Below are positions 11,536 to 63,003 of a stretch of 64,000 bases of DNA, piece after piece. The notes beneath the pieces were generated by a model. The model saw only the letters and a program-made list of their open reading frames with translations. It made no database searches and had not been told where the DNA came from. Both the position numbers and the translations under genes were made by a program. Position 1 is the stretch's first letter, and every line of letters starts with the position of its first letter. Origin of the DNA: Mytilus trossulus (Eukaryota); assembly GCF_036588685.1 (NCBI RefSeq), contig NC_086382.1:50261378-50325377 (forward strand), in the 5' to 3' direction.

Positions 11536-11699
11536 AAATTAGCTTCAGGTCACCCACACAATTGGTGTCCCTTTGATCATAGTTTTTGAAGAGATTTTAT
11601 TGTAAAGCAAATATCCATCAGAATTTCAGTCTTATTTAACTTTATAAAAATAATGAGATGTGGTATGATTGCCAATGAGACAACTATCCACCAAAGTTC

Positions 11700-12920: not shown

Positions 12921-13677
12921 ATCTGTACATGTAAGGCTTATATATGACAACAAGAAAAATCCATGCTGTTTAGTCTGCTATAAAAGTCTCCAAACATGAA
13001 AAATTAGAAAACAATTCAATTCAGCAAACACTGAATTACAGACTCTTTGATTGGTTATTAACTGCGCCCTGGTGTGTTGTTGTAGCATGCTTGCCTCAAG
13101 TGCAGGAGATTGTGGGTTTGAAACCAAGAAGTATAACACAAAAGACTTTATTATTGGGTATTTGCTTCTTTTCTGTGATGCAACCGCATTAAAAAAATAA
13201 GAACAAGGACTGGTTTACCCTGAGTAAGAATTATGTGTTAAGGGTATACTGAGATGATCTGATTAATAGGGTAAAATTAAATAAATCAAGAATTCAAAAT
13301 TGATACTTTTAGCTTGAAGAGTATTAGTTCAGGATCAAAATAAGCTAAAATTGATAGGTCATGTAGCTCTTTTCAAGATATTTGACTTATGAAATATGGC
13401 AGAAAAAGGCTGACTTGGACTTTAACATTATATATGCAATGGTATTTTTTAGGTCTCAAATCAAAAGGAAGAAAATTAAGAATCTGCTTAAATTTTGTCA
13501 AATAACCTTTTATGAGCTATTAAGTCTCATGTAAAAAAGATAGATAGGTGTTATTGGGCAAAATATTTTACCTTGTTTGTATGGAAAATCACATTCAAGG
13601 AATCTGAACATTTGACACAAATTTCAAAACCTCCCTAATGGCTACATGTCTTCCGTAGAGACTCATTATCATCTTTA

Positions 13678-33312: not shown

Positions 33313-33851
33313 GTATGATTATAATGAAAACTGGTCATAGCAAAAATCATTTCATAGTTGATATGTTTTTAAAACAAAAGCTTCATCAGATAGATGGGTA
33401 TCGACTTAAAATATTGATCTCAAGTAGTTTCAAAAAGACAAAGAAAATATTCAGTTTTGTAAGCCTCCTAATCAAGTTAATCTTCACATGCTGCAGGGAT
33501 AGGAATGGGTTAAATATCTTTGAAAAAATTAGACACAATAGATCTGATACTACAACAACATATTATTTTTAGTTGTCACAAAAATACCTCACCAACCTTG
33601 TCTCTACTTTACAAACATATTATATCTTTTTCTTACATCATTTTATATTATACATCAAGTGGACTATCACCATCAAATGGTACAAGCTGGTTATAATAGT
33701 CCAAGGTGGATACTGATGTTGTCTTAAAAGCCTTGTGAAACTAAACCTATAAAAAGACAACTGCAAATTATATTATCTTGAAGACGCAACTGTTAGTTGC
33801 CAAAAAGCATTCCTTTCAAAAATTATGGGTGTTGTCTTTTATTATATAGAT

Positions 33852-34110
33852 ATAGGAAGATGTGGTATGAGTGCCAATGAGACAACTCTCCATCCAAATA
33901 ACAATTTAAAAAAGTAAACCATTATAGGTCAAGGTACGGCCTTTAACACAGAGCCTTGACTCAAACCGTACAACAAGCTATAAAGGTCCCCAAAAATTAC
34001 TAGTGTAAAACCATTCAAACAGGAAAACCAAAGGTTTATCTATATAAAAAAAAAACAAGAAAAGAGGGACATGTATAAATAATATAAACAAACCACAACT
34101 ACTGTACGGG
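33852..34110 (+). mobile_element. SINE family A copy
   Basis: tataggaagatgtggtatgagtgccaatgagacaactctccatcc. Ends about 33 bp before the exon-14 acceptor. Confidence 0.65.
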
Positions 34111-34142
34111 TACATCAGATTCCTGTTATTTTAAACTGTTAG

Positions 34143-34367
34143 GTTGTAGTACTCCAAGAATACCACAACACCAGTACCTCTACTCTAGAAGCTAAGTATG
34201 TATTCCCATTGGATGATATGGCTGCTGTTTGTGGATTTGAAGCTTTTATAAACGGTAAACATATCGTAGGAGAAGTAAAGGAGAAGGAGACGGCTCACAA
34301 GGAATACAAGAAGGCAATAAGTGAAGGACATGGAGCCTATCTCATGGATCAGGATGAAGAAACTCCT
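34143..34367 (+). CDS. PARP4: PARP4-like exon 14 (VIT domain: EAKYVFPLDDMAAVCGFEAFINGKHIVGEVKEKETAHKEYKKAISEGHGAYLMDQDEETP)
   Basis: Near-identical to human EAKYIFPLDDKAAVCGFEAFINGKHIVGEIKEKEEAQQEYLEAVTQGHGAYLMSQD. Confidence 0.85.
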
Positions 34368-35250: not shown

Positions 35251-35406
35251 GATGTATTTACAGTCAGTGTGGGTAATCTACCACCAGGGTGTGTGGCCCT
35301 CATCAAGATAACTTATGTATCAGAATTACAAGTAGAGGGAGAATTGATTAACTTTACAATTCCTGGATCTGTGGCTCCTTGGAAACAGGGACCCAGTAAT
35401 ACTGAG
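35251..35406 (+). CDS. PARP4: PARP4-like exon 15 (DVFTVSVGNLPPGCVALIKITYVSELQVEGELINFTIPGSVAPWKQGPSNTE)
   Basis: Human counterpart is DVFTVSVGNLPPKAKVLIKITYITEL...ATVAPWQQD. Confidence 0.8.
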
Positions 35407-35692
35407 GTAAGGGAGGTAATCTACCACCAGGGTGTGTAGCCCTCATCAAGATAACTTATGTATCAGAATTACAAGTAGAGGGAGAATTGATTAACTTTAC
35501 AATTCCTGGATCTGTGGCTCCTTGGAAAGAGGGACCCAGTAATACTGAGGTAAGGGAGGTAATCTACCACCAGGGTGTGTAGCCCTCATCAAGATAACTT
35601 ATGTATCAGAATTACAAGTAGAAGGAGAATTAATTAACTTCACAATTCCTGGATCTGTGGCTCCTTGGAAACAGGGACCCAGTAATACTGAG
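35407..35692 (+). repeat. PARP4: two extra tandem copies (143 bp each) of [first 8 nt of intron + last 135 nt of exon 15]
   Basis: gtaaggga + GGTAATCTACC...ACTGAG repeated at 35407 and 35550. The copies differ from the exon at a synonymous GTG-to-GTA site. The 143-nt length would shift the frame if the downstream donors were used. Confidence 0.8.
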
Positions 35693-36943
35693 GTAAGGGA
35701 GGTATTCTATAATATGGGGCTCTCATTATGGGTCTGATCCAGGATCCTGTTTATTGTTTTGTCAGATTAAAGAAGCCCACTTATCATTGTAATAAGTCAA
35801 TGGAGATAATTGGGACAACACCTCAAAATGAGGAACTCAAAAGTCATGTGTAAAGAAAAATCTCTGTGTAGTGAAATTGGACATGTTTCTATTTTTTTCA
35901 AATGACTGAGCTTAACCATTTGTGGTGATTAGGAAAGTAAAGAAACAAAGAATAAATTTGTAAAAACTATGGAGCTATTGAATATGTTCAAAGTATTAAA
36001 ATTTTCAAAGAACTTATTGTGTTAAAAAGGGGATACTTTACCACAAGGAGCCGCATCAAAAAGGATGTTCGGAGAATGCTAATTTACGAAAAAAGTAATC
36101 TCACTTCGTACCTTGAAAATTTAACCACATATGTTAAAATGTCACAAAAAAAGCTATCCTACATATCCAAGTTTACGATATGGATTAAGCTACAGGAAAA
36201 AACGTTACCATTACCGCCTATGAAAAAACAATAAAAGATATTGACCCAATTGCAAATAGACTGAGACAATGTGTTTGTCCCTAGATATGTTTTGTGCCAA
36301 AAATACAAGTCGTTCAATCTACAGTTCAAATGCTTGTTACAGGGAGAATGAGAAGGATAGACAATTAATACATAGAGAATAATACATGGCAAAATCCGTA
36401 TTATATGTTGTATCATCCCGAGACATCAATATCAGCCCAAGGGCCTTTAGGCCCGAGGGATGATATTGGTTGAGGGTGATACGGCATGTGATATGGATTT
36501 TGCCATGTATTATACGCTTTATCATATATTTCAACAGAAGAGTATTATATTATATGAACTGTTATCTGATCCATAGCACTGGGTTACCTTCAGTTCTGCA
36601 TTTGTCTTGTTTCAAAGCCTTAAAATAACTGCTCAATTATTTATACGAAGCACCTGGATTTTGCCATGTATTATCCTTACAATCTGTTGTTTTAAAAATA
36701 TTTTGTTTATTATTGTATTTATTTGAGTATTTTGTATTTTTTATACATGTATAGTTGCATTCAGTGTACCAAAAAATATGTTGTGAAAACTTATGTTCAT
36801 GACGTCACATACAATATTAAACTTGACGTTCGTGACGTTACATACCAAACAATGACGTCATTAAAAAAATTGACCTATTTTAAGGATTTTTTTCTTAAGC
36901 CAAAAATAAACAAAAACTGACTTCATGTAAAAAAAAAAAAAAA

Positions 36944-37650: not shown

Positions 37651-37765
37651 TTATTTCTGGACATGGCATATAGTATTGACTTTTGTTTAGTTTTATTATC
37701 TATTTTGTCAGGTTGCTGTCACCCCCACTGCGTAATTCACATAACAATGCATTTTATAATTGTAG

Positions 37766-37900
37766 AAAACAGCCACTAGTTGTATCATTGAGATGATTGG
37801 ACAGAAAATATCTGATGGATTTCAATTACTGATAGGACTTGCTGAAATACATGTTCCGAGGATGTGGGTTGAGGTGGATAGTGAAGGGACACAGACTGAG
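37766..37900 (+). CDS. PARP4: PARP4-like exon 17
   Basis: KTATSCIIEMIGQKISDGFQLLIGLAEIHVPRMWVEVDSEGTQTE. Human counterpart is DCKAVISTMEGSSLDSSGFSLHIGLSAAYLPRMWVEKHPEKESE. Confidence 0.75.
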
Positions 37901-38287
37901 GTACGTGTAAATATCATTTGAAAAAAAATAACCATATTATTTACAAAACTAGTATATCAGTTATTGGCTATGCTTCTGGGAGAAACAAAACTTTTTATGC
38001 TACTATACATTTATATGCTTTTAGTAATACAAAGTTAAAACAGCCACCAGTAAATTTGACTAATTATTAGGGTTTAACTTGCTAAAATGAGTAGTCATTA
38101 TTGTGAAATGCATTCATTCTCATTTTTCTCAAAAAAATTATCATTGAATATATATATAACTCTTAGTGCTGGTACTACAACTATAATGAAGTTAAAATAT
38201 TGTTATCTTTCCATTATTTTCAATATGCCCTTTGACCTTACAATACAGTTTACAGAAACTTAAAATCACACAATATTATTTTTTTAG

Positions 38288-38474
38288 GCAGCCATGTTGA
38301 CATTTTATCCAGAATTTGAAGCAGCAGAAGACAACGAAACAGAGATAATACTTGTCCTCGACCTTTCAAATTCAATGAAGGGGAAAGCTTTGTTGGAAGC
38401 GAAGAAAATTTTACTGCTGACATTAAACCACTTGACAGCTCATAGTTTGTTTAACATTGTAGTTTTTGGCACAA
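38288..38474 (+). CDS. PARP4: PARP4-like exon 18 (vWA domain start: ILVLDLSNSMKGKALLEAKKILLLTLNHLTAHSLFNIVVFGT)
   Basis: Human counterpart is VIICLDCSSSMEGVTFLQAKQIALHALSLVGEKQKVNIIQFGTG. MIDAS-like DxSxS motif. Confidence 0.75.
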
Positions 38475-38579
38475 GTAAGTTCTGAACCATATATTTTATG
38501 CTGTATTTACAGGCTTAGTTAACTGAAAGAAACCTCACTAGCTTGAAGTTAAACCTTTGCTCAAAGACAAATCCCTCTA

Positions 38580-39110
38580 TTGGTTATGCGCATATACCAG
38601 CGCAACAGTACTATGCCGTCAGTGTTTTATGACGTCGTGGTTTCCGCGAACTCGAAACGTTAATGAGAGTTATTCCTCTTTGAGCCGATGGAGAGAGTGA
38701 CAAACGTTTTGATAAGTAGATTTTCCGAGAAGAAAATGAAAATTGTTTTTATATAATAGACATGTTCCAGAATTTGATTTATAGATTAATTATGTGAATT
38801 AAGTGTATCTGAAACAAACAACAAAACAGCAAATGATAAAATATATGAATAAAAAGAGAGGTAACTATACAGCAAACTAACAACTGTCAAGAAATGAAAC
38901 AAAAATCTAGATACTCGATAACAAGATGGAGGAGGATATGACCTTTATCGGGACTATGGGATCGGGTGTTTTAAGCTCGGGATTTTGGGATCCGGGAATC
39001 CTTTTTAACTTTACTTTGTTTAAACTCGGGACCTCGGGATTTCGTTTTTTTAAGTCCGGGATTTCAGGATTGGCCAATCATATTATAATATAAAACTAAT
39101 TTCCATAATT
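38580..39110. other. CpG-containing island-like block with periodic CGGGAT(T/C)T repeats and a CCAAT box, inside an intron
   Basis: tcgggactatgggatcgggtg...ctcgggattttgggatccgggaat...ctcgggacctcgggatttcg...gtccgggatttcaggattggccaatca. Confidence 0.35.
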
Positions 39111-39589
39111 TCCTACGTGAATGGATTGATCTGTTCTATAGAGACAATCTCTTCGGTAGCCTAGGTTTTAAATTGTATTTATATTTCCACAAATCATTAA
39201 GAAAGTACGAAAATCATCAATCATGTCATCAAAATTCAATGTATCTATAGAATTAGAAACCTTACGTACCTATATGGCAAATTTCACATACGTCATTTTG
39301 AATGTGTAAGGCGATAACATTTTTACACGAATATAATATTCAGATTTCTGATAAGCACCAACAAATCAGTTACCCAATGACGCATACGTGTAAAATAAAA
39401 GAAAAGTTAACATTTACGCTTCTAACATTGTAGGTTTTTGTATTTGACCACTCCTGAGTATGATCCGATTTGCCGAATTTTAAATTTATGTACTAGGTGC
39501 GCAATTGTTTTTTAAAAAAACAACATAATCCTGCCTGTGTTTAAAAGTTGTCTGAATGAAGAATTAAAGAGAAATGCATATGAAACAAG

Positions 39590-40015
39590 AATGTGTCCAA
39601 AGTACATGGATGCCCAACTCACACTATCATTTTCCATGTTCAATAGACAGTGATATTGGGTAAAATAATCTAATTTGGTATTAAAATTAGAAAGATCATG
39701 TCATAAGCAACATGTTTACTAAGTTTCAAGTTGATTGGACTTCAGCTTCATAAAAAAACTACCTTGACCAAAAACTTTAACCTGAAACTTGCACTTTCAT
39801 TTTCAATGTTCAGTGGACCTTGAAATTGGGGTCAAAAGTCAAATTTGGTCTTAAAATTAGAAAGATCATATCATAAGCAACAAGAACTTCAAAAACTACC
39901 TTGACTAAAAACTTAAACCTGAAGCGGGACAGACTGACGGAAGGAGGAACGGACGCACAGACCAGAAAACATAATGCCCCTCTAATAGTCTATCGTAGGT
40001 GGGGCATAAAAAAAG
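39590..40015 (-). repeat. repeat family B copy, inverted orientation
   Basis: Positions 39960-40010 (cataatgcccctctaatagtctatcgtaggtggggcataaa) are the reverse complement of the 21935 terminus, and the ccactgaacatagaaaatgatagtg block appears in reverse complement. Confidence 0.6.
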
Positions 40016-41085
40016 CAATATTTGTTTTGAGAAAAAAAGTCAGACTAGGTTCCATTCATTATCATGATATGACAACTGTATGAGTATACTTAGACTGAGT
40101 TTCTAGCAACATGACGGAATATTTTGATATGAAAGATGTCTATGGATGAATGATCAAAACAGTAGTATGTTAAATAGACCCCGTTAACACTTGCACTAAA
40201 TTGAATCGATCTTTTAAGAGCATCTCTCATTTACTATTTTTTTAGAATTTGTGATTTTAAATTAAGTATACATTGCAATCCTAAAATAATCAGTCATTTC
40301 GTTAAAAAAAACCTCGTAGTAAATAGAATAACGGGAAGGAAATATTTGGTTCATTAGATGTGTTTCTGCATTTATTAATTATCTTTTTTTATTAATATGT
40401 CATAAGTCCTTTTAAAAACAAAGAAATTCCAGAATAATTTTACTTATAACTGTCATTTTGTTTGAAGATGAGGAATTTACAGAAAATAATATAAAAAAAT
40501 AATAATGAATAAATACAATTGAAAAGATAGTTTTTAAAATGTGCACCGATTAACACACGTATATTTAGCGAATACGGAACGAATAAGTAACGGTATCAGT
40601 CGAGCACTGAAACGGGTCCTGTCCAAGGTCAGGAGCTTGTAATTAAGTAGTTGTCGTTTGTTTAAGTATTACATGTTTGTTTTTCATGTATTTATTTTTT
40701 GTTCATAAATTAAGCCTTTATTTTCTCGTTTTTCATTTGTCATTTCTGGACCTTTTATAGGTTTATATGAGATTTGCTCATTGTAGAAGGCCGTACGATG
40801 ACCTTTTATAAATAGTTCCTGTGTCAATTGGTCTCTTGTGGAAATTTGTATTATTTGATATCATATCTTTATCTTTCAGGAAAATGACAAAAAAAACTAC
40901 GTATACATTTTTTTTTAATCTTCATGTTCTCTCAAAATCATTTGAGTATACGGATGAAACTTTGAAATCAGTTACTTATAAGAATATATTAAACTGACCA
41001 TGCGCAGTTTTATTTTCATATCTACATAAAACATTTTGAATTGTAGATCGATTTATCTAAGCGTTTAAACTTAAAAAAAGATCAG

Positions 41086-48504: not shown

Positions 48505-48585
48505 GTTCTTCACTGCTTGACTGCTAAAGCTGTGATCAGAGACTGGGAAGATGGAGTACTCTCCCCTGACAGTATTGACCATCAG
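48505..48585 (+). CDS. PARP4: PARP4-like exon 24
   Basis: VLHCLTAKAVIRDWEDGVLSPDSIDHQ. Human counterpart is IHKLAARALIRDYEDGILHENETSHE. Confidence 0.7.
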
Positions 48586-48725
48586 GTAAATATATACTTT
48601 ATAATAGAGACTGGAAAGATGGAGTACTCTCCCCTGATAGTATTGACCATCAGGTAAATATATACTTTATAATAGAGACTGGGAAGATGCAGTACTCTCC
48701 CCTGATAGTATTGACCATTATGTAT
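48586..48725 (+). repeat. PARP4: two extra tandem copies (69 bp each) of [first 24 nt of intron + last 45 nt of exon 24]
   Basis: gtaaatatatactttataatagag + ACTGG.AAGATG.AGTACTCTCCCCTGA.AGTATTGACCAT repeated. The copies carry a synonymous GAC-to-GAT change. Confidence 0.75.
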
Positions 48726-49215: not shown

Positions 49216-49317
49216 TTAAAGAAGATGAATATGAAAGACTATATAATAGAACTGAGTAAGAAATATTCCATTGTTACACAGCTGACAAGTTTTATTGCTG
49301 TAGAGAAAAGAGAAAAG
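49216..49317 (+). CDS. PARP4: PARP4-like exon 25
   Basis: LKKMNMKDYIIELSKKYSIVTQLTSFIAVEKREK. Human counterpart is LKSLIIKLSKENSLITQFTSFVAVEKRDE. Confidence 0.75.
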
Positions 49318-50149
49318 GTAATACTGAAATTTTGTGTATAAAAAAAACAGACAAAATTTTTCCGTAGTCATCTCAAAGTCTTGTTGCTGATTGCTTGAAT
49401 TACCTATTTATGAATCTCCCAGTAAAATAACATATCTTACACAAAAGTGATAGACCACATAAAACATGTTATTCTATTTACAAATATGCACACTGTTTAA
49501 AAAAAATATACCTAATACTTTTGTTCTTTTATTAATGTTAAGGTGAACTTAGGTGAAAATAAAAAAAATCAAGAATTAAAAATTGATACTTTAAGTCAAA
49601 TGAGTCTACCTTAAGAAACAAAATCAGCTTAAAATATTGATAGGTTAAGGAGATCCTTTTCAAGATATTTGATTTATAAAAAATGGGGTAAATGGTTACC
49701 TTATATTTGCATTGGTATTAGTTGGGTTTCAAATCAAAAGAAAAGAAATCAAGAATTTGCTAAAACTTTGGTAAATCATGGCTTTCATGAGCTATAAAGT
49801 CCTATATGAAAAGAAAAATGGGCGTAATGGGGCAAAATATGTTACCCTGCATATTAAAAAACAAGGAACATCTGACATCTTTTCCTAAACTGCACCCAAG
49901 TACATCCTTAATGTAAAATTAAAATAAAACTTGATGAAATGTTATGTTCAGGCCTGTAGCCAGGAATTTCCAAAGATGGTGTTATTTTGACTCACTAACT
50001 CGACTTTAACAGTCACAATTCAAACAGAACGTTGACTTTAACAGTGCTTATTTGTTTTCAAGGGGGTAGGTTGTACGAACCTATGAACCCCCTGGCTATG
50101 GGTATGATGTTAACATCTTTATATTGTGGATCATTAACTGATTATGATT

Positions 50150-50600
50150 AATTTTTATGCCCCACCTACGATAGTAGAGGGGCATTATGTTTTCTGGTCT
50201 GTGCCTCCGTTCGTTTGTTATCTGTCCAATCACTTTTGGTCAAGGTAGTTTTTGAAGAAGTTGAAGTCCAATCAACTTGAAACTTAGTACACATGTTCCC
50301 CATGATATGATCTTTCTAATTTTAATGCCAAATTATAGCTTTGACCCCAATTTTATGGTCCACTGAACATAGACAATGATAGTGCGAAGTTCAGGTTAAA
50401 GTTTTTGGTCAAGGTAGTTTTTGATGATGTTAAGGTTACATCAACTTGAAACTTGAAACTCAGTACACATGTTCCCTATGATATGGTCTTTCTAATTTTA
50501 ATTCCAAATTAGTTTTGACCCCAATTACACGGTCCACTGAACATAGAAAATGATAGTGCAAGTGGGTGATCCGTGTACTATGGACACATTCATGTTTTAG
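50150..50600 (+). repeat. repeat family B copy
   Basis: tttatgccccacctacgatagtagaggggcattatgttttctggtctgtgcctccgttcg ... gtccactgaacatagaaaatgatagtgcaagtgggtgatccgtgtactatggacacattc. Confidence 0.65.
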
Positions 50601-51019
50601 AAATGATATAAAATCTGTCTTCTGCAATTGATGTATCCAACCTGAGTCACTGTCATTATATCTAACAGATATTTTTTAAAAAGATTCAACTATTTCTAAA
50701 ACTTGGGAATATGTATGTGGCTTCTCAAAATCCTGAAGAGATCTAATATATTGAAAAATTTTAGAATGATTTTTTTTATTGTGATGGATTTTTGATTAAT
50801 TGACAAAATTGGAAGATTAATTATTTAAATTTTTAAATACAAATAAAACAAGCAAAATTTGAAAAAGAAGTTTTCATTTTTGCAAAGCTTATACTGTTGC
50901 AATTTTCTCAATATTAAAAACATCACAAATTATATCTGAATTTACTGTTTTAAAAGCAACACATTTATGAAGGCTGTCTTGATTATATACACAAACATTT
51001 TAAAAGCCTCTACTTGTTT

Positions 51020-54000
51020 GTTAAAGATTGTTTATTAAACATTTGTAGGATGAGGTAATATTGTCAGAGGGATCATTTATATTAGAGTTAGTTGATAGTT
51101 TGTTAGAGATTGTTTATTAAACATTTGTAGGATGAGGAAGTATCGTCAGAGGGATCATTTATATCAGAGTTAGTTGATAGTTTGTTAGAGATTGTTTATT
51201 AAACATTTGTAGGATGAGGTAGTATCGTCAGAGGGATCATTTATATCAGAGTTAGTTGATAGTTTGTTAGAGATTGTTTATTAAACATTTGTAGGATGAG
51301 GTAGTATCGTCAGATGGACCTTTTATATCAGAGTTAGTTGATAGTTTGTTAGAGATTGTTTATTAAACATTTGTAGGATGAGGAAGTATCATCAGATGGA
51401 CCTTTTATATCAGAGTTAGTTGATAGTTTGTTAGAGATTGTTTATTAAACATTTGTAGGATGAGGAAGTATCATCAGATGGACCTTTTTTATCAGAGTTA
51501 GTTGATAGTTTGTTAGAGATTGTTTATTAAACATTTGTAGGATGAGGTAGTATCGTCAGAGGGATCATTTATATCAGAGTTAGTTGATAGTTTGTTAGAG
51601 ATTGTTTATTAAACATTTGTAGGATGAGGAAGTATCATCAGATGGACCTTTTATATCAGAGTTAGTTGATAGTTTGTTAGAGATTGTTTATTAAACATTT
51701 GTAGGATGAGGTAGTATCATCAGAGGGATCATTTATATCAGAGTTAGTTGATAGTTTGTTAGAGATTGTTTATTAAACATTTGTAGGATGAGGTAGAATC
51801 GTCAGATGGACCTTTTATATCAGAGTTAGTTGATAGTTTGTTAGAGATTGTTTATTAAACATTTGTAGGATGAGGAAGTATCATCAGATGGACCTTTTAT
51901 ATCAGAGTTAGTTGATAGTTTGTTAGAGATTGTTTATTAAACATTTGTAGGATGAGGTAGTATCATCAGATGGACCTTTTATATCAGAGTTAGTTGATAG
52001 TTTGTTAGAGATTGTTTATTAAACATTTGTAGGATGAGGTAGAATCGTCAGATGGACCTTTTATATCAGAGTTAGTTGATAGTTTGTTAGAGATTGTTTA
52101 TTAAACATTTGTAGGATGAGGAAGTATCATCAGATGGACCTTTTATATCAGAGTTAGTTGATAGTTTGTTAGAGATTGTTTATTAAACATTTGTAGGATG
52201 AGGTAGTATCGTCAGAGGGATCATTTATATCAGAGTTAGTTGATAGTTTGTTAGAGATTGTTTATTAAACATTTGTAGGATGAGGTAGAATCGTCAGATG
52301 GACCTTTTATATCAGAGTTAGTTGATAGTTTGTTAGAGATTGTTTATTAAACATTTGTAGGATGAGGAAGTATCATCAGATGGACCTTTTATATCAGAGT
52401 TAGTTGATAGTTTGTTAGAGATTGTTTATTAAACATTTGTAGGATGAGGTAGTATCGTCAGAGGGATCATTTATATCAGAGTTAGTTGATAGTTTGTTAG
52501 AGATTGTTTATTAAACATTTGTAGGATGAGGTAGAATCGTCAGATGGACCTTTTATATCAGAGTTAGTTGATAGTTTGTTAGAGATTGTTTATTAAACAT
52601 TTGTAGGATGAGGAAGTATCATCAGATGGACCTTTTATATCAGAGTTAGTTGATAGTTTGTTAGAGATTGTTTATTAAACATTTGTAGGATGAGGTAGTA
52701 TCGTCAGAGGGATCATTTATATCAGAGTTAGTTGATAGTTTGTTAGAGATTGTTTATTAAACATTTGTAGGATGAGGTAGAATCGTCAGATGGACCTTTT
52801 ATATCAGAGTTAGTTGATAGTTTGTTAGAGATTGTTTATTAAACATTTGTAGGATGAGGAAGTATCATCAGATGGACCTTTTATATCAGAGTTAGTTGAT
52901 AGTTTGTTAGAGATTGTTTATTAAACATTTGTAGGATGAGGTAGAATCGTCAGATGGACCTTTTATATCAGAGTTAGTTGATAGTTTGTTAGAGATTGTT
53001 TATTAAACATTTGTAGGATGAGGAAGTATCATCAGATGGACCTTTTATATCAGAGTTAGTTGATAGTTTGTTAGAGATTGTTTATTAAACATTTGTAGGA
53101 TGAGGTAGTATCGTCAGAGGGATCATTTATATCAGAGTTAGTTGATAGTTTGTTAGAGATTGTTTATTAAACATTTGTAGGATGAGGAAGTATCATCAGA
53201 TGGACCTTTTATATCAGAGTTAGTTGATAGTTTGTTAGAGATTGTTTATTAAACATTTGTAGGATGAGGAAGTATCATCAGATGGACCTTTTATATCAGA
53301 GTTAGTTGATAGTTTGTTAGAGATTGTTTATTAAACATTTGTAGGATGAGGTAGTATCGTCAGAGGGATCATTTATATCAGAGTTAGTTGATAGTTTGTT
53401 AGAGATTGTTTATTAAACATTTGTAGGATGAGGTAGAATCGTCAGATGGACCTTTTATATCAGAGTTAGTTGATAGTTTGTTAGAGATTGTTTATTAAAC
53501 ATTTGTAGGATGAGGAAGTATCGTCAGATGGACCTTTTATATCAGAGTTAGTTGATAGTTTGTTAGAGATTGTTTATTAAACATTTGTAGGATGAGGAAG
53601 TATCATCAGATGGACCTTTTATATCAGAGTTAGTTGATAGTTTGTTAGAGATTGTTTATTAAACATTTGTAGGATGAGGTAGTATCGTCAGAGGGATCAT
53701 TTATATCAGAGTTAGTTGATAGTTTGTTAGAGATTGTTTATTAAACATTTGTAGGATGAGGAAGTATCATCAGATGGACCTTTTATATCAGAGTTAGTTG
53801 ATAGTTTGTTAGAGATTGTTTATTAAACATTTGTAGGATGAGGAAGTATCATCAGATGGACCTTTTATATCAGAGTTAGTTGATAGTTTGTTAGAGATTG
53901 TTTATTAAACATTTGTAGGATGAGGAAGTATCGTCAGATGGACCTTTTATATCAGAGTTAGTTGATAGTTTGTTAGAGATTGTTTATTAAACATTTGTAG
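51020..54000 (+). repeat. PARP4: tandem array of about 38 copies of a 78-bp unit, where each unit is the intron 3' end (ttgttagagattgtttattaaacatttgtag) plus the first 47 nt of exon 26 (GATGAGGAAGTATCATCAGATGGACCTTTTATATCAGAGTTAGTTGATAG)
   Basis: Read directly. At least three unit variants (GAGGAAGTATCATCAGATGGACC, GAGGTAGTATCGTCAGAGGGATC, GAGGTAGAATCGTCAGATGGACC) alternate in a higher-order pattern. The last unit runs straight into the authentic exon 26. Confidence 0.9.
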
Positions 54001-54097
54001 GATGAGGAAGTATCGTCAGATGGACCTTTTATATCAGAGTTAGTTGATAGAGAAGATGTGGACTTCCTTAACTACCTCAACTGGGAGGGAGAGACAG
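54001..54097 (+). CDS. PARP4: PARP4-like exon 26
   Basis: DEEVSSDGPFISELVDREDVDFLNYLNWEGET(G). Human counterpart is PFPDIPKVSELIAKEDVDFLPYMSWQGEPQ. Donor GTAAGT. Phase 1 out. Confidence 0.75.
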
Positions 54098-55127
54098 GTA
54101 AGTAATCAATAGACTTTTCTCATAATACCCACTTTTGACTTCAGATTTTTTTTTCTGTCAAAAGGTACCTATTATGTGGTAAACATCTTAGTACTCAGAC
54201 AAGTCAAGAAAGAGCAACAAGAAGAAGTAAAATCAAACATCTAATTGGTTCAATTTTTGGGAAAAGTTTTCTGTTTCCCATAATTTGTCCTATAAAGAAA
54301 AAGTAAAACTAAATTTCCCCTTAAATTGTAAAGATTGTAAGCTTGGCTTCTTTAACTGAAAGTTGCTCCTACTTGTCAGAGTACCAGGATGTCCAACTAC
54401 AGATAAGTTAACCTGTCTAAAAAAACAAACTACGGAGTCAAAAGTTGGTAATATGAAAATAGTCTTATGTTCTAAAAATTCATCTGCTTACCAAAGAAGT
54501 ATTTTTTGCCATAATTTGTAGATGTTTATATTTAACCTTCTGTGTGATCCTAACATATTTTGGAGTTTTGTGACTGTAACACCTTGTGGAGGAATCTCTT
54601 CTGAGACGATTTCACAGAAAGCTCTCACATGCATATCAGTCAACTGACCCGTATTCTGCGGGTGTGACCCGAGATTTTCACAATTATGAAGGATCACCCG
54701 GGACACCCGCCGGGTCATTCAAATAACCCGGGAATTCCGAAAATGACCCGATTTCACCCGTTTTTCTTAGCTTTGAGATTGATTTCATAAGTAATATATT
54801 CCTTTGAAATACCGGAATATTCGTAATTCTTCCATGAACAGGAAGTTCATTTAGCTATACAAACTGTCAAATTAAGTGACCCATTAAGGGTATGGCTTCA
54901 CTTGACAGCTTTGGTGTCAAACAAACTGTTAATTAACACCAATTACCTTAGCTTTAGGTCGTAAATAAATTGTAAACATATTTCAAATAGACGTCTAGAG
55001 TTACTTCCCCTTATTTGTCACCATTCAAAATTATTCCTTATATTTACGTTTTGTGGGTGAAAAAGATTAAATCATTAATAAATATAAAATTCAAATACAT
55101 ATTGAAAACTAAATTTTTATTTATATA

Positions 55128-55245
55128 GATATAGGAAGATGTGGTGTGAGTGCCAATGAGACAACTCTCCATCCAAATAACAATTTAAAAATTAAACCAT
55201 TATAGGTTAAAGTACGGCCTTCAACACGGAGCCTTGTACCTTTAT
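55128..55245 (+). mobile_element. SINE family A copy (3'-truncated)
   Basis: tataggaagatgtggtgtgagtgccaatgagacaactctccatcc. Confidence 0.55.
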
Positions 55246-56107
55246 ACAATTTTAAAAAAAAAGTTGAAAATTATTTTTTACATTTATACCTTCTTTAACT
55301 ATATTACTATATTTTTTCTTCTATAATCAAAAATGGTATGTTAAAAGGCTACATAGCCAGCAATTTCAAACATTTATAAATCACTTTTGAACAATTTTAA
55401 TTCTTTATTTGGATGAATACAAATAGTAATGAACATAAGACTGTTACACAGAATTATAAAAATCTTTAAAAGTGCAATGAAGTAATAATTAATAGGATTT
55501 AAAATGACTTAACCAAGTGAACATGCATTGATGTTGTGGTATCTTTGATATACTTTACAAGAAAATGTACCATAAATACTGAAATTCAGCTCGAAAAAGT
55601 TCGTACGCGTTATGACCTGAGATTTGATTCTTCAATGCAGGTCATGACCTGCATTTTCATCATCACAGGTTGACAGGTATGCACATGTGTTACTATTGTT
55701 ACTGTCATTATATTCTAAAATATAAAAGTGAGGAAACCTTGACAATATTTTGAAGCTTATGACAATAACACCCTGTGAATGCAGCTACTATGAGACCATT
55801 TTATAAATTTCTCATACTTGGTAAGATTGGTTCTTATTGTATATAGTTGATTAATTGATTGTTGGTGTTTAACTCCTCTTTGTAGTGCCACTTTAAGGCA
55901 ATTACATAGCGGCCAGTTTTTAATGGTGACGGAAGCCCAGTGAAAACAACTAACCTTCGTTTGGAAAACCGACAATTCCTGTCAAGATTGGAGTCAAGTG
56001 TACCTATACCAGCAGGGTTTCAAAACTCACAACTTCAATTTTATAATTTCATGCATCAAAGGTGTTCAAAGGAAATTTTATGAGCCTCCATGAATTTATT
56101 ATTTAAG

Positions 56108-56230
56108 GAAGTGTCTATAGTAGTAGCAATGAGGAAGAAAGCACTAGTGAGGATGAAAGTCTAAGTAGTGGAGGATTTGTAAAAGGAGTTCAAAGAGGAG
56201 CAGTGGATGGGGAAGATCTTATTACTTCAG
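56108..56230 (+). CDS. candidate exon 27 (acidic/Ser-rich linker: SVYSSSNEEESTSEDESLSSGGFVKGVQRGAVDGEDLITS)
   Basis: Acceptor atttaag and donor G|gtaaaa. No in-frame ATG. The preceding in-frame genomic codon is TAA, so this must be an internal exon. Phase-compatible with both exon 26 and exon 28. Confidence 0.45.
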
Positions 56231-57948
56231 GTAAAATAGAGGCATTTGTGCTATAGGAGATTAAGATTAAGACAAAAAAGTCAAGTTTTGAAAATACTAA
56301 AGAACTGAAGATCATTTTGAAAAAATATGGTTAGTTAATGTGATTAATGAAGGGAGAGGTATATTTTGAGGCTCTTGATCATAAATATAATAGGACAATT
56401 CTGTTTTTGATAACCTTTTGACTCCAAAGCTTATGTGAATGATCTTCATCACTTTGGTATTGGTCATCCTCTGCCTTAAGCTATTTTTGGGCTGGCAAAT
56501 TTAACAAAAAGCATAGATTTAAAAATAAGGAGACGTGGTATGATTGCCAATGAGACATCTATCCAACAAAGTTCAAATAAGTGGATGCATGACACCAGTT
56601 GTAATCTGTTCAGATTGACCAGTTTGCAAATTTTTCTTCTCTGAAACTAAATTGTGAAATGAATTTGAAATTTCTTAGGATTGATGATTCTAAGACCCTC
56701 CACAACTGTCCTCATTTTATGTCAATTTAGTGGCAGATATGACATCATCTTGATACATTGCTACCATTTGAAAACAATTAATAAAAAGCAGAGGCAGATT
56801 TAGGGCCCTTTAGTGGAAACATTTTGGTTGGTTATATAGGGAATCACCGAAGCGTGATTGGAGCGGGCCCCCTCATAGGCAGCCAGTGAGCCCCCACTTA
56901 GGAAAATTTCTGGATCCGCCACTGAAAAGCATCATTAAACTGTTTAAATCATGACTAAAACTGTGATCACTTTGATAGTAAAACACTTTGATTTTCACCG
57001 TAGCACTAATATTGAAAAAACTTTTTTGCTGAAGCACAATGGGATTAGGATATTTAAAATGCCAAAATCATATAACTCTTACCTTGACCCTTGACCCATA
57101 TGATAGATATTTGAGTTCAGGGCATAATTGCATGTTCTTTGAAAACTTAGAATAACCAAAAATAAGTCAAACTTAGTGCGCAGATGCATTATGGGAAGGC
57201 GATTTTTCAGTGACATTTTTGTCATTGTGGCATTTACCTTTGACCCCCAAAAAGTTTTTGAACTTTACATTTGCTATCAGCAAAAATGGTAGTTGAATAT
57301 CCAATAAATATCAAATGATCATATAAAATGAATGACTGACTAGACGAACAAGCCAGAAGTTAATATTTATGTACAGTGGTTGAGGGGCTGGTTCCCCCTA
57401 TATTGAACCAGACGAATTCCTCAAAAAAGCATGTCCAAAGAGAACCATAACTGCCTAGAGATTTGAAGAATACCACACAACAAATATTGTGGAAAAGCAA
57501 GTAAAGAATAACTCTAAGTGTTTTGACATTTCACCAAGCAAAACACCACAATACTCAAACTCAATCTTTGTAAAGACAATGATCGTGTGGAATCAGCTAG
57601 ATGTCACTGTAGTGCTTGCATCAAGTGTAGAGAGCTTCAAATCTGCTCTCATGCCCCATCAATGAATTGGTGTCACTCTCTCAAACCATTGTATGAAAGC
57701 AAGTATTGGTACAGACAACGTATTCATACAGGTACAGATGACTGAAAGCAAAAAATCGCAAAATGACATTGTCTCAATACGCAATTTCACTGCAACACCT
57801 AGAATACATGTGCAGGTATTAGTCTGAAACTATATGTTGGAAAAGCTCTAACTGTAATTGGGTAAATGTCTCATTGATGTTTACCACACATTTGGTTTTG
57901 TTTATGTATATTTTTGATTTTGATATTTAATAATATGTATATTTTCAG

Positions 57949-58092
57949 AACTGAAAGAAGCTTTCCATTTATTTTCTGAAGATGATGGGCATACAATTTC
58001 TACAAAAGATGTTGGGCCTCTCATGAAGGCTTTGGGTCAAAATCCAACAGAAGCAGAACTACAAATCATAATAAATGATCTTGACTTTGATG
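57949..58092 (+). CDS. calmodulin-like exon (EF-hands 1-2: [49 protein letters not shown])
   Basis: Aligns to calmodulin [49 protein letters not shown]. Acceptor attttcag, donor G|gtaatc. Confidence 0.7.
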
Positions 58093-58196
58093 GTAATCTA
58101 TTCCAAGCATAATTTGTATCAATGAAAAATAATCTATAAGATATAGATAGAAATTTATAAATTATGTCTGCAAGCAAGCTAATTTTAAGTGGTATA

Positions 58197-58575
58197 AACT
58201 AGTGTTGTCGGTTAACCGTCGTAAGGACCAAATACCGAATACCAAAAACGCTAAGCGGTTAACCGGGCGGGTTTTTTTTCTTCAAATTTTTAGATTTGAA
58301 ATAAATGTATTGAAATCATTAATTAATATATAATAAACGCCATAGTAGTTACAGAGTATGGGATTATTAAAAGTCAAACTTCCGCAGGAATCCTCACAGA
58401 CAACGCTTTATAATGTCAAAGGACAAACTTTAGTTCATGGTATATAATATTAAAACGTACATTTAAAAGTTGCAACAGATAAGGCCGTCAAACATTAACT
58501 TAAACTACTGGTTAACCGGTTAATCGGTCGAACGATACTTCGAGTAACCGGTTAGGCAAAACTGTACAATTTGAC
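58197..58575. mobile_element. MITE-like element with about 12-bp TIRs (ACTAGTGTTGTC ... GACAACACTAGT)
   Basis: Both termini are flanked by ATAA(ACT). Confidence 0.4.
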
Positions 58576-59645
58576 AACACTAGTATAAACTGTACTCAAC
58601 TGAAATAAAAACTTGTTTTTGTTTGCTAAAAAATTATCATGTATTGTTTTCAGTGTAATGCCATTGTTAAAAGATACTTACATATATAAAGGACAAGGTA
58701 CGATAAGGCCCAACTTTCTGGTTTTATACAAATATTGTAATTATTATTGACTTTGTAGGTGTTCAGTACAACTAATTTTTAGTTTTTTAGTGCCTGCCCG
58801 AACGTGACCCAGGATTTTTTTTATTCCAATGTCATGAGAACTGTTTTTGCTGTCTAAATCGCCATAATTTTCTCTTGGTCACGTAGGCACACACTATTAA
58901 ATTTTAAGAAACAATGGCCGAAAAACGTTATTTTCCTTCTTTTGGATTTTTTATGCCCTTTTACCCTCCTCACCTCACCCATTTTCTGAAATTGATGGTT
59001 TTGAAGTTCATCCAAACAAACTTCAAACCTAAGGGAATATTTTAACGTGATAAGAAGCTTTCCAAAACAAAATTTGAAAATGAGAAAATAGGGGGGCCAA
59101 AAACCAGCCTTATAGTACCTTGTCCTATATATAATATGAGGCAGGCATTACCTGTAAATGGGGACGAAGTCTGTATGAATTATATTTTTGTAACTTAAAT
59201 ATTTGTTAAAAAAAGAAACGGAAATATACCGTCATGTTTCCGATATTGGTTCTGTCGTTAGGGAGTTTAGTTGTGACGTTATTTAAGTTATGACGTCATA
59301 TGCAATGTAAACAAAGAAACACTATCATCAGGTAACGTTTTTTCATTAAAAATGAAATTGATATTGCGTTTCTTCCTTTTTATAATAGATTGGTAAATAT
59401 ATATTTTACTTAAAGATTCATACAAACAAAACCGGAAAAAGGAAGTACATTGTAGATTTCTGCGCAAGTCCGGGATTTCAAAACATGACATAAAAAAAAT
59501 TGAATGATTTTGAGTTCATTAGTACAATGAAAAATTCGGGAAATTTTCCCGATTTTTTTTTTTATATTGAAATTTCTACTGTTATTGGGGACTTCGTCAC
59601 CATATAAAAAAATATATAAATTTAGATTTTAAATTTGTATTTTAG

Positions 59646-59953
59646 ATAGAGGTACAGTTGACTTTCCAGGATTTTACACATTAATGACACATAAAATGAA
59701 AGATACTGATGCAGAAGAAGAAATAATGGAAGCATTCAAAGTATTTGACAAAGATGGTAAAGGATCTATCAGCATGTCAGATTTAAGACATGTGATGACA
59801 AACTTAGGGGAGAAATTAACAGACGAGGAGATTGAAGAAATGATGAGAGAAGCTGATGTGGACAGTACTGACCAACAGATTGATTATTTTGCCTTTGTAA
59901 AGAGGATGATGGACGAGGAAAAATGTGAACCAGTTCAGCCTTCGGGTAATTAA
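59646..59953 (+). CDS. calmodulin-like terminal exon (EF-hands 2-4, stop TAA at 59951)
   Basis: [84 protein letters not shown]... Calmodulin counterpart is [76 protein letters not shown]. Confidence 0.8.
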
Positions 59954-60071
59954 AGTGTCCTGTATATTTATCTTTCAAATATAAACTGATTAATAGTATA
60001 GTATAGTTATAGATGAAAAAAAAATGCTAAATTCAGGTTGTTTGGTTTCATTTAAGTCATAAGAAACCTCA

Positions 60072-60077
60072 AATAAA
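60072..60077 (+). promoter_or_regulatory. candidate polyadenylation signal AATAAA about 120 nt after the stop codon
   Basis: Hexamer match only. Confidence 0.3.
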
Positions 60078-60685
60078 CAAAAATATGCATATGTTTTTTT
60101 ATAACTAAATAGATAGTTTTCATTATACAACTTATGTACATGTACTTTTTTCTGAGGAAAATTCTTTAATTTGTCCACATTTAGAAGAAGTTTTCTTATT
60201 TTTCATTGCTTCCAGGAAGCAATTCGCTGACATAATTTCCGTATGCATAGTGACCTGAGCGTAACCCTCCTCGTTAAAATCCGGTGATCGCAATATGCAT
60301 GGATCTGTCATTAAAATAAACAATTATCTGATTGTACATGTTAAACACATGCTCAATACCTATGCTTTTTGTTATTTGTTTACTATAAGGTGACAATAGG
60401 TAAACTTCGTCTTCAAAATACGGTATTTAATGAGCAGCCATATTTGTTAAATCATAACAGACAGGAAGAGAGAAAAAAATGACGATTAAATGATATATTT
60501 GCGTAAAAAATGATAAATTCCTGCCCAGTCTGGACTAAGTTTAAGATATATACTTGCATTGGTTCAAGAATTGGATAACATTATTTTTCACCACTCACTC
60601 GTTTCTTATGACTTTAATGATCATTGATATGCAGATAAATTTCAAACATTTATATGAATAGAAAATGATCTACTGTTAATTTCAG

Positions 60686-60874
60686 AACAAGACACAAGAT
60701 CCAAATCCAGCCAAATAAAGAACAAAGGTGGTTTTAAAACTCCTGCAGCACAAGAAACTGTGGAAAACTTAAAGGAAAAAGAAGTCATGTTAGGGAAAAA
60801 ACAAGATTTCCTTGAAAAGAAGGTGGACAAGGAACTGAAGTTGGCAAAAGAAAATGCTGCCACAAACAAAACAG
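60686..60874 (+). CDS. CHMP4: CHMP4/Snf7-like (ESCRT-III) internal exon
   Basis: ...KNKGGFKTPAAQETVENLKEKEVMLGKKQDFLEKKVDKELKLAKENAATNKT. CHMP4B counterpart is GGPTPQEAIQRLRDTEEMLSKKQEFLEKKIEQELTAAKKHGTKNKR. The start codon lies upstream and was not found; the in-frame upstream genomic codon is TGA. Confidence 0.7.
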
Positions 60875-60974
60875 GTAATTATTGCAAGTAATCTTAAAAA
60901 TTGGAGTTATCTTCTTATGTAAACAATTGTAGTTGATTCAGCTACAACCAATGCTTATACAATGCAATATTTAA

Positions 60975-61340
60975 TTTTACTTAAGAATTGAATGCATCTT
61001 TTTGTAAATTTATTGGAGTGTAAAAGCCTGGACTGAAGTACATTTTGTATGAAGCACGGAAGTGCTTCATTTTTAAAAATGTGTGTACGGTCAACACTTT
61101 TATAACCCTATAAAGTTACAAAAAGAAGCATTCAATACTTATAATTACATTTTTTAGCTAGGATAATGAAACACGATTTTTATCAAGTTTTTATTTAATT
61201 CACCTGTGTACTTTATTATGGGACCTCGTGTCATTATGAATAGTTTTATTGTGTAATGTAATTGCTTATGGAATAACACGTGCTGTGCAGTTAGCCAATC
61301 AAAATTAACGTATTATAATGAAACATACATCTAATGTAAT
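60975..61340 (+). mobile_element. MITE family C copy (in a CHMP4 intron)
   Basis: aagaattgaatgcatctttttgtaaatttattggagtgtaaaagcctggactg...gaagtgcttcatt...ggtcaacacttttataaccc. Confidence 0.6.
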
Positions 61341-61878
61341 TATTTTCCATTGATAAGTTGAATCAATCTACCATTCAGTACTGATAATTATTTAAATTTA
61401 CTGTTTTGCCTAATACCTGTATGTTGAATACTTTTAAAATTGTTAGATATAACCTTTAATTAGTAGATATGAAGCTTCATCAGTATTTGAAAACATTGAT
61501 CCAAGAAATTTTGAATGTAGCACTGCAGTAAAAAGTGTGCAGTGCTGTTACTTTAAAGATCCCATAGGACAACAAAACAGAAACCTTCAATAAAAAAAAA
61601 TGGCTATTTTAATGCTAGCACCTAGAAATCACTAGTTAAAAACTGTCTGCACACAGTTTTTTGATGATCAATGATTGCTCCTTGGATCCTGTTTTGATTC
61701 AAGTGTCACTCATGAGTCTTTTGTAGACCAAACACATGATCAGTGTACACAGTTTTAATCCTGGTATTGTGAGTTTATTATATTTAATGGCAATATGATT
61801 GAATGAATATTCCATTTAAATCTTCATCTTTGTGTGCATTAACATGGAAATTTATAGTGAGTTTTCACCTATCAATAG

Positions 61879-62056
61879 TTGCTCTGCAAGCTTTAAAGAG
61901 AAAAAAGAGGTATGAAAAACAGTTACAGCAAGTGGATGGAACACTAACAACTATGGAATTTCAGCGAGAGGCATTGGAGCAGGCAACAACTAACAAAGAA
62001 GTTTTGAGTTGTTTGGGTGGGGCTACTAAAGCCTTAAAGATGATCGAGCAACACGG
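61879..62056 (+). CDS. CHMP4: CHMP4/Snf7-like exon
   Basis: (V)ALQALKRKKRYEKQLQQVDGTLTTMEFQREALEQATTNKEVLSCLGGATKALKMIEQH. CHMP4B counterpart is AALQALKRKKRYEKQLAQIDGTLSTIEFQREALENANTNTEVLKNMGYAAKAMKAAH. Confidence 0.85.
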
Positions 62057-62918
62057 GTAAGAATCCAAACATGCATTAAATGTTTAATATCTCATATTTT
62101 TTAATTCTTTACTAAAGAATCCAATTTGATTTTCTTCATCCGACTTCAACAATGAACAAAACCCTTACTATTTAGTAGCTTTAACAATTAAGGAAAACAA
62201 ATGTGTAGGACAGCTATCAAAGCAACCCAATAACATGCTCCCACCTTTATATACAAAATGTGGTAGGTTATACAGATTTGTGAGCACTTATTCTCACCTT
62301 ACCTTGGACAGAAGTGTAACAGCACAACATAAGAACAAACTATGGTATTCAATTTACATAGAACAGAAAACAACGAATAAATATACTAAAGAAACAAAGT
62401 ACAGATCTAAGATGACTGGCAGCTTGTGAAGGTCTATGTATGATCTTAGTTAAAAAGTTTTCCCTTCAGACTTCATTCTTTATTAGCACTGAAGCAATTT
62501 TTCAAAGATTTTATGCTTATATTTAAGGATTTATTTGTAAAGGTATGTAAAATAATTCTCGATGGATTTAACTTGATGTCATTTCTCATCTAGAAGACTG
62601 TTTATCTTTATTTTGCTTTATTTATAGCATTACAGCTGACTGTGATAGGTTTCCCAAAACACAAAAACAGATCTATTACTGACTTATATTAAGTTTTATG
62701 TATTTCATTCAATTCAAAATAAATCTCTAATATTTTAGTAACCTTTCCTAAAGTATTTGCTGTGACAATACAATTTTTCATGGAAAAGCATGGACGATTT
62801 CATTTTTTTTTTTAAAAGGATGAAATTCTCTGAGAGGAAGAAATCATTCTGCCACAAAGTTGACTATTTTTTTTTCTTCCTCATATAACATATATGTAGT
62901 TTTTATGTTTTTTTCCAG

Positions 62919-63003
62919 GGATATTGTTCATGTTCATGATCTATTGTCTGATGAAATATGTGATGCTATTTCTTCTAATTATTTTGGATTGACAGCAGAT
63001 GAG
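62919..63003 (+). CDS. CHMP4: CHMP4/Snf7-like exon
   Basis: (G)DIVHVHDLLSDEICDAISSNYFGLTADE. CHMP4B counterpart is DNMDIDKVDELMQDIADQQELAEEISTAISKPVGFGEEFDEDE. Phase 2 in, phase 0 out. Confidence 0.55.

Follow-up and report, generated by a model that had tools for sequence, protein, structure and literature searches.

The question raised by this locus is where a mussel vault PARP ends. A stretch of 64,000 nucleotides (nt) of Mytilus trossulus DNA (RefSeq assembly GCF_036588685.1, contig NC_086382.1, positions 50,261,378 to 50,325,377 of the forward strand; this whole stretch is referred to as the window) carries on its + strand, from ~10.9 kb, a PARP4-like gene whose PARP4-homologous exons are followed by an acidic linker exon and by exons for a calmodulin-like (CaM-like) unit. 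The sequence-only reading of this region had proposed that the four-EF-hand domain closes the protein in the place where human PARP4 has its MVP-binding region. The four exons concerned are best explained, with a probability of roughly 0.6, as coding exons of one long PARP4-like (vault PARP) transcription unit with a modular tail, in which the CaM-like unit is internal because the apparent terminal TAA lies in the next intron. On sequence grounds, a fusion of PARP4-like to CaM-like coding sequence in M. trossulus is likely, and we infer that splicing in vivo passes through the junctions 49317>54001 and 54097>56108. The exons of the model are the following (a slash marks an exon border):

10916 to 49317, + strand: PARP4-like core, 25 exons from the ATG at 10916, encoding BRCT, PARP_reg, PARP catalytic, VIT and vWA domains and the 'RDWEDG...FIAVEKREK' region
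54001 to 54097, + strand: PARP4-homologous exon encoding DEEVSSDGPFISELVDREDVDFLNYLNWEGET(G), starting in phase 0 and ending in phase 1, donor CAG/GTAAGT
56108 to 56230, + strand: acidic Ser/Glu-rich linker exon, its 3' end being the first half of helix A of EF-hand 1
57949 to 58092, + strand: CaM-like exon 1, the remainder of EF-hand 1 and EF-hand 2 up to the loop
59646 to 59945, + strand: CaM-like exon 2, the loop of EF-hand 2, EF-hands 3 and 4 and a short tail, donor CGG/GTAATT
60686 to 60874, + strand: Snf7/CHMP4-like exon 1 (EQDTRSKSS...ATNKT), entered in phase 1 from the CaM-like exon
61879 to 62056, + strand: Snf7/CHMP4-like exon 2, from the mapping of XP_063404519.1
62919 to 63003, + strand: Snf7/CHMP4-like exon 3, from the same mapping, donor GAG/GTTAGT

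In tblastn with the PARP4-like protein CAG2205451.1 of Mytilus edulis (1730 amino acids, aa), residues 1-1181 are matched collinearly between 10916 and 54093 of the window, which has a GC content of 30-35%; the core accounts for residues 1-1150, and its exon junctions are GT-AG sites chosen in frame under the guidance of CAG2205451.1. When the 32 exons are joined from the ATG at 10916 to 63003 they give a single uninterrupted frame of 1543 codons, along which Pfam recognizes, in order, BRCT (positions 2-81, E 1.7e-12), PARP_reg, PARP (394-570, E 2.5e-29), VIT (627-739, E 1.4e-36), VWA_3 (864-1014, E 9.9e-20), EF-hand pair(s) and Snf7 (E 1.1e-21). The succession BRCT-PARP-VIT-vWA on one polypeptide is that of PARP4 or vault PARP (Clade 5); the motifs LLFHAS, GVYFAS and DDEFVIY are visible by eye, with no reference alignment behind them. 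Toward the 3' end, eight successive exons from 49216 to 63003 have AG and GT at each border and share one frame of 406 aa, and the last five of the eight are exactly residues 1-274 of XP_063404519.1, a protein annotated in M. trossulus RefSeq. A chance fit of phase at any one junction is expected about 1 time in 3, as against 32 exons that are open across 1543 codons.

The four exons behave as the sequence-only reading described them: each interval (54001-54097, 56108-56230, 57949-58092 and 59646 onward) is bordered by a canonical acceptor AG and donor GT, and the four concatenate in one frame. The PARP4 homology of the first is borne out by residues 1151-1181 of CAG2205451.1, which match 54001-54093 (tblastn, 65% identity, E 2e-6); the motif 'EDVDxLxYLxWEGE' after 'FIAVEKREK' is also present in Saccostrea PARP4, and a weaker form of it in sea-urchin PARP4. 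If the donor at 54097 is left unused, the frame ends two codons later (..ETGK, then stop). The linker exon has no in-frame ATG and is preceded immediately by an in-frame TAA (...EFII, stop, GSVYSSS...), while its final residues, GEDLITSE, align with the first half of helix A of EF-hand 1; the linker therefore belongs with the CaM-like exons and, as had been argued, is ruled out as the start of a gene.

The CaM-like unit is complete. Its exons are recognized by Pfam as EF-hand_7 in two stretches (E 3.9e-25), and against calmodulin structures in the PDB all four EF-hands are collinear with residues 11-146 (E ~1e-54); outside the loops, identity to calmodulin is 55-65%. The Ca loops are a different matter: in place of the canonical 12-residue loop (D1, D/N3, D/N/S5, G6, E12), the Glu at position 12 is missing in all four (D, G, D and F/A stand instead), loops 1-3 carry G, R and K at position 5 and so lose that ligand, and loop 4 has one extra residue. 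Ca binding by the module is probably lost, because none of the loops has the bidentate Glu at position 12 and three have no ligand at position 5; the degeneracy noted earlier for several loop positions thus extends to every loop. The module also does not have the form of a free-standing protein of ~149 aa with its own initiator Met, as there is no ATG at its N-terminus. The earlier statement that the CaM-like exons hold no start codon is right for this natural N-terminus and wrong for the exons as a whole, which do contain in-frame ATGs; that at 58023 (MKALGQ, in CaM-like exon 1) is the annotated start of XP_063404519.1, although a start there would halve EF-hand 1.

The proposal that the protein ends with the CaM-like domain is not upheld. 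The TAA at 59951-59953 sits just 3' of a consensus donor, CGG/GTAATT (59945/59946), and so in the next intron; the same donor is found in M. edulis as CAG/GTAATT, and XP_063404519.1 ('charged multivesicular body protein 4c-like', 376 aa, 100% identical to the window over 274 residues) uses it, mapping exactly with that exon end. The frame passes from there into the Snf7/CHMP4-like exons, the first of which has no ATG ahead of VMLGKK; the Snf7 match (E 1.1e-21) spans profile positions 2-112 of 171, and the unit lacks the N-terminal start of its own that a Snf7/CHMP4 (ESCRT-III) domain would have. The linker, the CaM-like unit and the Snf7-like unit are thus alike in having no start codon at their natural N-termini. 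Beyond the window, XP_063404519.1 runs into an acidic segment and then a C-terminal SNARE fragment of SNAP-25 (PDB match, E 1.7e-11). The SNARE exon of M. edulis ends ...RISTK/GTTAGT, so the end of XP_063404519.1 ('VSDLN', then stop) is a read-through of the donor and the model looks truncated at both ends. No actin-like or HSP70-like exons were found in the window or in the corresponding M. edulis stretch, and the C-terminal MVP-interaction domain (PF26156) does not lie within the window.

The M. edulis syntenic locus (CAJPWZ010001022.1) is collinear with the window at 85-98%. There, CAG2205447.1 (775 aa, 'PARP2_3_4') joins PARP, VIT and vWA to the linker and the CaM-like module in one protein, and the linker copy at 28489-28611 is identical at 39/41 aa. 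CAG2205447.1 ends at ...PSGN, exactly at the TAA after the CaM-like module, as the sequence-only reading would have it; the next called gene (1579 aa), however, is labelled Snf7, HSP70 and PF26156 PARP4_MVP-ID by precomputed Pfam labels, its sequence lying beyond the DNA that could be read. In M. trossulus the frame splices on into Snf7/CHMP4-like exons and, past the window, SNAP-25-like sequence, and a replacement of the MVP-binding region by the EF-hand module is not supported; a single PARP4 gene would be expected to have the MVP-interaction domain downstream of the modules. Three independent gene models overlap to tile the unit: CAG2205447.1 (PARP/VIT/vWA, linker, CaM-like), XP_063404519.1 (CaM-like, Snf7, SNARE) and, by label, the 1579-aa gene. 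Between the window and M. edulis the substitutions in core exons are almost all synonymous, with a ratio of nonsynonymous to synonymous rates (dN/dS) of ~0.02, and the core is under strong purifying selection; dN/dS is 0.81 for the CaM-like exons (7 nonsynonymous against 2 synonymous changes) and 0.90 for the Snf7-like exons, and the linker has 2 nonsynonymous and 0 synonymous changes. Vertebrate PARP4 is reported to have a fast-evolving tail that contrasts with its core (Daugherty et al. 2014). The contrast between core and modules in the mussel appears to match it. Sequence on either side of the CaM-like exons is conserved to the same degree as the coding sequence, so that the exon/intron contrast with M. 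edulis is not decisive.

The one spliced transcript fragment recovered, ENA ERZ27229307 k141_1964 (partly spliced, from a close PARP4-like relative), is 87-89% identical to the window. At 377-505 it has, after 'FIAVEKREK', an exon encoding EEERNGDVRQTPWAKVDK... (EEERNGDV...) with no counterpart in the window, which indicates that the exon after 'EKREK' varies between paralogues or species. The fragment was set aside as evidence on the junction between PARP4 and the linker: at that identity and with a different exon after 'EKREK', it is probably from a paralogue or another species.

The same kind of fusion is met far from mussels. ENA contig ERZ1764460 k141_22657699 (16.5 kb, GC 54%, eukaryotic) encodes a PARP4-like protein 37-39% identical to those of amphioxus and Nematostella; a single open reading frame (ORF) of 1166 aa holds PARP, VIT and vWA, the last 45 residues of 14-3-3, an acidic Ser/Glu linker and EF-hand 1, and a lone GT-AG intron of 148 nt, in frame, adds the rest of a CaM-like unit. 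The tail of this protein (4702-12269) is ordered as a 14-3-3 tail, the CaM-like unit, SNARE-like motifs, ~8 heptads (YSPTSPS) of the C-terminal domain of RNA polymerase II (Pol II CTD), poly-Pro and an SH2 domain; acidic linkers follow the CaM-like unit, and the pieces are separated by short gaps only. After SH2 a Cys/His-rich region resembles, by eye, a TRAF-type zinc finger. In-frame fusion of PARP4-like and CaM-like sequence, as originally proposed, is predicted by the 1543-codon frame of the window and is present in CAG2205447.1 and in this contig, with the correction that the mussel module is probably internal and not C-terminal.

Fragments of other host proteins after the vWA domain are widespread. 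A heterologous domain follows vWA in the same ORF in oyster, Nematostella and amphioxus proteins, as it does in the ENA contig with its one in-frame intron. Among the best 150 PARP4-like representatives, ~35 have actin (residues ~2-70), ubiquitin, 14-3-3 or HSP70 substrate-binding-domain fragments in this position; the carriers include molluscs, cnidarians, amphioxus, echinoderms and others, and some tails hold several fragments in series (ubiquitin, actin and HSP70 in one representative). Pfam confirmed the fragments in 9/9 proteins checked (oyster, Nematostella, amphioxus, Biomphalaria and M. edulis), among them Magallana gigas K1PUC2, the RefSeq Nematostella PARP4 and Branchiostoma lanceolatum PARP4. 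Perina et al. 2014 (DNA Repair 23:4, PMC4245714) described the addition of 14-3-3, actin and ubiquitin-related domains to proteins of the PARP4-like type; the consulted portions of that paper and the literature searched do not mention EF-hand/CaM-like, Snf7, SNARE or HSP70 modules. The claim of a new domain architecture is therefore too broad for appended domains as such and stands, within that literature, for the CaM-like module; the proposed architecture is one of CaM-like, Snf7 and SNARE modules chained together and added to a known but little-studied group of PARP4-like proteins.

Four tandem arrays lie in the PARP4-like gene, each straddling an exon-intron junction:

13665 to 14233: 191/171 nt x 3, at the acceptor of a BRCT exon
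35272 to 35709: 143 nt x 3.1, at the donor of a VIT-region exon
48538 to 48718: 68 nt x 2.7, at the donor of the 'RDWEDG' exon
51016 to 54050, + strand: 82 nt x 37 copies (TRF: 96% matches, score 5517), at the acceptor of the 'EDVDFL' exon

The unit of the last array is made up of 33 nt of the 3' end of an intron, with its acceptor (..ttgtag), and the opening 49 nt of exon 54001-54097. Bases 1-50 of that exon are the final unit of the array, and 36 extra copies of acceptor and exon 5' end stand upstream. On the + strand from 51055 to the exon at 54001 there is no ORF of at least 30 aa, and all three frames of the array contain stops, because of which the array is considered intronic and a source of decoy acceptors. 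Its interpretation as coding repeats was rejected, since units of 49 nt would throw the reading out of frame, no frame is free of stops, and 33 nt is too short for an 'intron'. The M. edulis syntenic locus lacks the 82-nt array, and TRF over CAJPWZ010001022.1 9000-41082, a range without the BRCT region, shows no equivalent of the 143-nt or 68-nt array. The four arrays are either real duplications that make decoy splice sites or an effect of assembly. M. edulis has large intronic satellites 3' of the SNARE and Snf7 exons (61 nt x 41 at 37673-40193 and 39 nt x 22 at 33316-34167 of CAJPWZ010001022.1). Upstream of the gene, window positions 1-3300 hold two tandem partial retroelement copies with reverse transcriptase, with ORFs including ...YRPVSLTSVISKILEHIV... 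and ...FADDCLLYR....

Several observations weigh against a single transcription unit with an internal CaM-like module. Splicing into exon 54001 could be misdirected by the 36 acceptor copies that precede it. The M. edulis locus has neither exon 54001-54097 nor the 82-nt array, and without the exon the phase-0 donor of its 'EKREK' exon does not match the phase-1 acceptor of the linker; CAG2205447.1 reaches the linker by way of a cryptic donor, CTGA/GTAAGA, inside the 'EKREK' exon. The M. edulis copy moreover has frameshifting indels of 1 and 2 nt in VIT, vWA and Snf7 exons (CAJPWZ010001022.1 13694-13914, 16244-16426 and 31250-31439), which are either assembly errors or decay by very recent pseudogenisation. 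A tail dN/dS near 1 fits drift as well as it fits the fast tail evolution known from vertebrate PARP4. The link to the MVP-interaction domain is a precomputed Pfam label on an M. edulis gene of unread sequence, HSP70 and this domain both lying outside the window and the CAJPWZ010001022.1 stretch. The RefSeq model XP_063404519.1 begins at Met 58023 and is unlinked to any PARP4 model, and a protein search with linker and junction peptides, of low power since it also missed XP_063404519.1, found no spliced transcript or transcript-derived protein across 49317>54001, 54097>56108 or 56230>57949; a similar search with the joined PARP4 exons gave short fragments only.

Three other explanations can be set against this background. 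The locus may hold two genes, a PARP4-like gene that stops at or before 54001-54097 and a CaM-like/CHMP4-like/SNARE chimera with its own promoter and either a short undetected first exon or a start at Met 58023; this is unlikely. The annotation of XP_063404519.1 as a separate 376-aa protein from 58023 speaks for it, but that model is apparently truncated at both ends, its C-terminus being the donor read-through, and the start at Met 58023 halves EF-hand 1 and leaves the conserved linker unexplained. The stop reached when the 54097 donor is unused, together with AATAAA at 54964 and 55077, would provide an end for the first gene, and the missing 54001 exon of M. edulis breaks the simple in-frame path there; a downstream MVP-interaction domain (precomputed label), on the other hand, is sensible only within a PARP4 gene, and ERZ1764460 k141_22657699 has the same fusion in a single ORF and one intron. 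As to an independent first exon, a search for an ATG with a phase-1 donor over 54.1-56.1 kb returned 28 candidates, a few of which may be counted in favour of a second gene; all are short, none is outstanding and their quality is at chance level, though sequence alone could miss a tiny exon, and the linker encodes the start of helix A yet has no ATG. The observed/expected CpG ratio is 0.2-0.3 across 55.5-58 kb, compared with a window median of 0.53 and ~1.0 near the gene start (10.5-12 kb); it gives no promoter-like signal and, as weak evidence, is more in keeping with a methylated gene body.

It is less probable still that the protein ends with the CaM-like domain at TAA 59951-59953, in a main or alternative isoform, with the 59945 donor unused and polyadenylation shortly 3'. 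The frame is open from the PARP4 exons through this TAA, CAG2205447.1 stops there (...PSGN), and AATAAA at 60072 is ~120 nt 3' of it; against these points stand the consensus-like donor ahead of the TAA in both species, its use by XP_063404519.1, the start-less Snf7-like exon that is entered in frame, and the MVP-interaction domain labelled further 3' in M. edulis (a precomputed label). About equally improbable is a decaying tail, in which a redundant PARP4 paralogue once captured the CaM-like and Snf7-like exons and these now drift neutrally as relics, making no functional protein however the transcript is built. The dN/dS values of the tail and the changes in the linker speak for it, as do the degenerate Ca loops, the frameshifts and missing exon of the M. 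edulis orthologue and the four arrays across exon-intron junctions in the window copy, and a full-length paralogue (CAG2205451.1) lies close by in M. edulis: it shares a 5.16-Mb contig with CAG2205447.1, and their accession numbers differ by four. All 32 window exons are nevertheless open with intact splice signals over 4.6 kb of coding sequence, the core exons are strongly purified by selection, calmodulin identity outside the loops is kept at 55-65%, vertebrate PARP4 likewise shows its high dN/dS in the tail only, and equivalent modules recur in distant lineages.

Under the preferred reading of one long PARP4-like gene with a modular tail, the protein would consist of a conserved core (BRCT-PARP-VIT-vWA-'FIAVEKREK'-'EDVDFL') followed by a tail of start-less in-frame fragments that may have been copied from abundant cytosolic proteins, with acidic linkers between them. 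In the window the modules would be a full-length CaM-like unit with four degenerate Ca loops and then a Snf7/CHMP4-like unit; just past the window the C-terminal SNARE fragment of SNAP-25 would follow, and then, by M. edulis synteny and precomputed labels, an HSP70 fragment and the PARP4 MVP-interaction domain that would close the protein. The favoured hypothesis for its role, a speculative one, is that the tail displays host-protein look-alikes on a PARP4 scaffold, which the MVP-interaction domain would keep inside the vault or at its surface; the look-alikes may offer binding platforms or act as baits for partners, among them possibly factors of pathogens, in a parallel to the fast-evolving disordered tail of vertebrate PARP4. 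With its Ca ligands gone, the CaM-like module would present a Ca-independent, calmodulin-shaped surface and would not be a Ca sensor. A more speculative extension, regarded as unlikely at present, is that in animals other than vertebrates, and in their relatives, the variable PARP4 tail is in general a cassette array of look-alikes of host proteins that are often targets of pathogens, which would make vault PARP a bait-carrying innate immune sensor or trap. Such an array may include the actin N-terminus, ubiquitin, the 14-3-3 tail, the HSP70 substrate-binding domain, calmodulin, CHMP4, the botulinum-substrate segment of SNAP-25, Pol II CTD heptads and SH2; it may be shown on an ADP-ribosyltransferase anchored to vaults via the MVP-interaction domain, with the dead-loop CaM-like module of the mussel as one bait.

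What PARP4 and vaults do is a question of long standing. Transcription of the mussel gene as modelled would mean that PARP4 tails are more than disordered spacers: they would act as evolvable racks on which start-less pieces of abundant host proteins are carried, and the positive selection in vertebrate PARP4 tails would be linked to a modular mechanism that is visible in invertebrates. The model raises a testable question, namely which partners bind a Ca-blind calmodulin, a CHMP4 core and a SNAP-25 segment tethered to the vault. It would also mean that a single gene is broken up under misleading names ('CHMP4c-like' and 'Sulfhydryl light chain') in the current annotations of two Mytilus species.

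Two existing gene models, XP_063404519.1 and CAG2205447.1, cover the same exons and together contain every junction from the linker onward, apart from the passage from PARP4 to the linker in M. trossulus. Each is partial, as the former starts inside EF-hand 1 and ends by donor read-through, while the latter comes from a frameshifted locus, depends on a cryptic donor and ends with the TAA. Calmodulin is like the mussel module in its four collinear EF-hands and in the conserved central linker MKDTD.EEEI; it differs in that the mussel module is start-less, has an acidic N-terminal linker spliced to helix A and is embedded in a far larger protein. In plant NLR immune receptors, integrated decoy domains are fragments of pathogen-targeted host proteins carried within larger proteins. 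They offer a functional analogy only, in which host-protein fragments would likewise be fused into a fast-evolving protein of a family implicated in host-pathogen conflict; neither homology nor an experimental link connects them with PARP4 tails. The proteins of Perina et al. 2014 (PMC4245714) share with the modelled mussel gene a housekeeping-protein domain placed after VIT and vWA, the same classes being found in oyster, Nematostella, amphioxus, Biomphalaria and others; the mussel gene would differ by chaining several modules in one tail, and the start-less nature of the fragments is not discussed in the consulted portions of that paper. Human PARP4, or vault PARP, has the same order of BRCT, PARP catalytic, VIT and vWA, then the 'RDWEDG...FIAVEKRE' and 'EDVDFL..W.GE' motifs, next a fast-evolving variable region and finally the C-terminal MVP-interaction domain, which in the mussel is placed by an M. 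edulis synteny label. In vertebrate PARP4 the variable region is one large disordered exon without recognisable domains, whereas that of the mussel is predicted to be spread over many exons that encode calmodulin, CHMP4 and SNAP-25 fragments.

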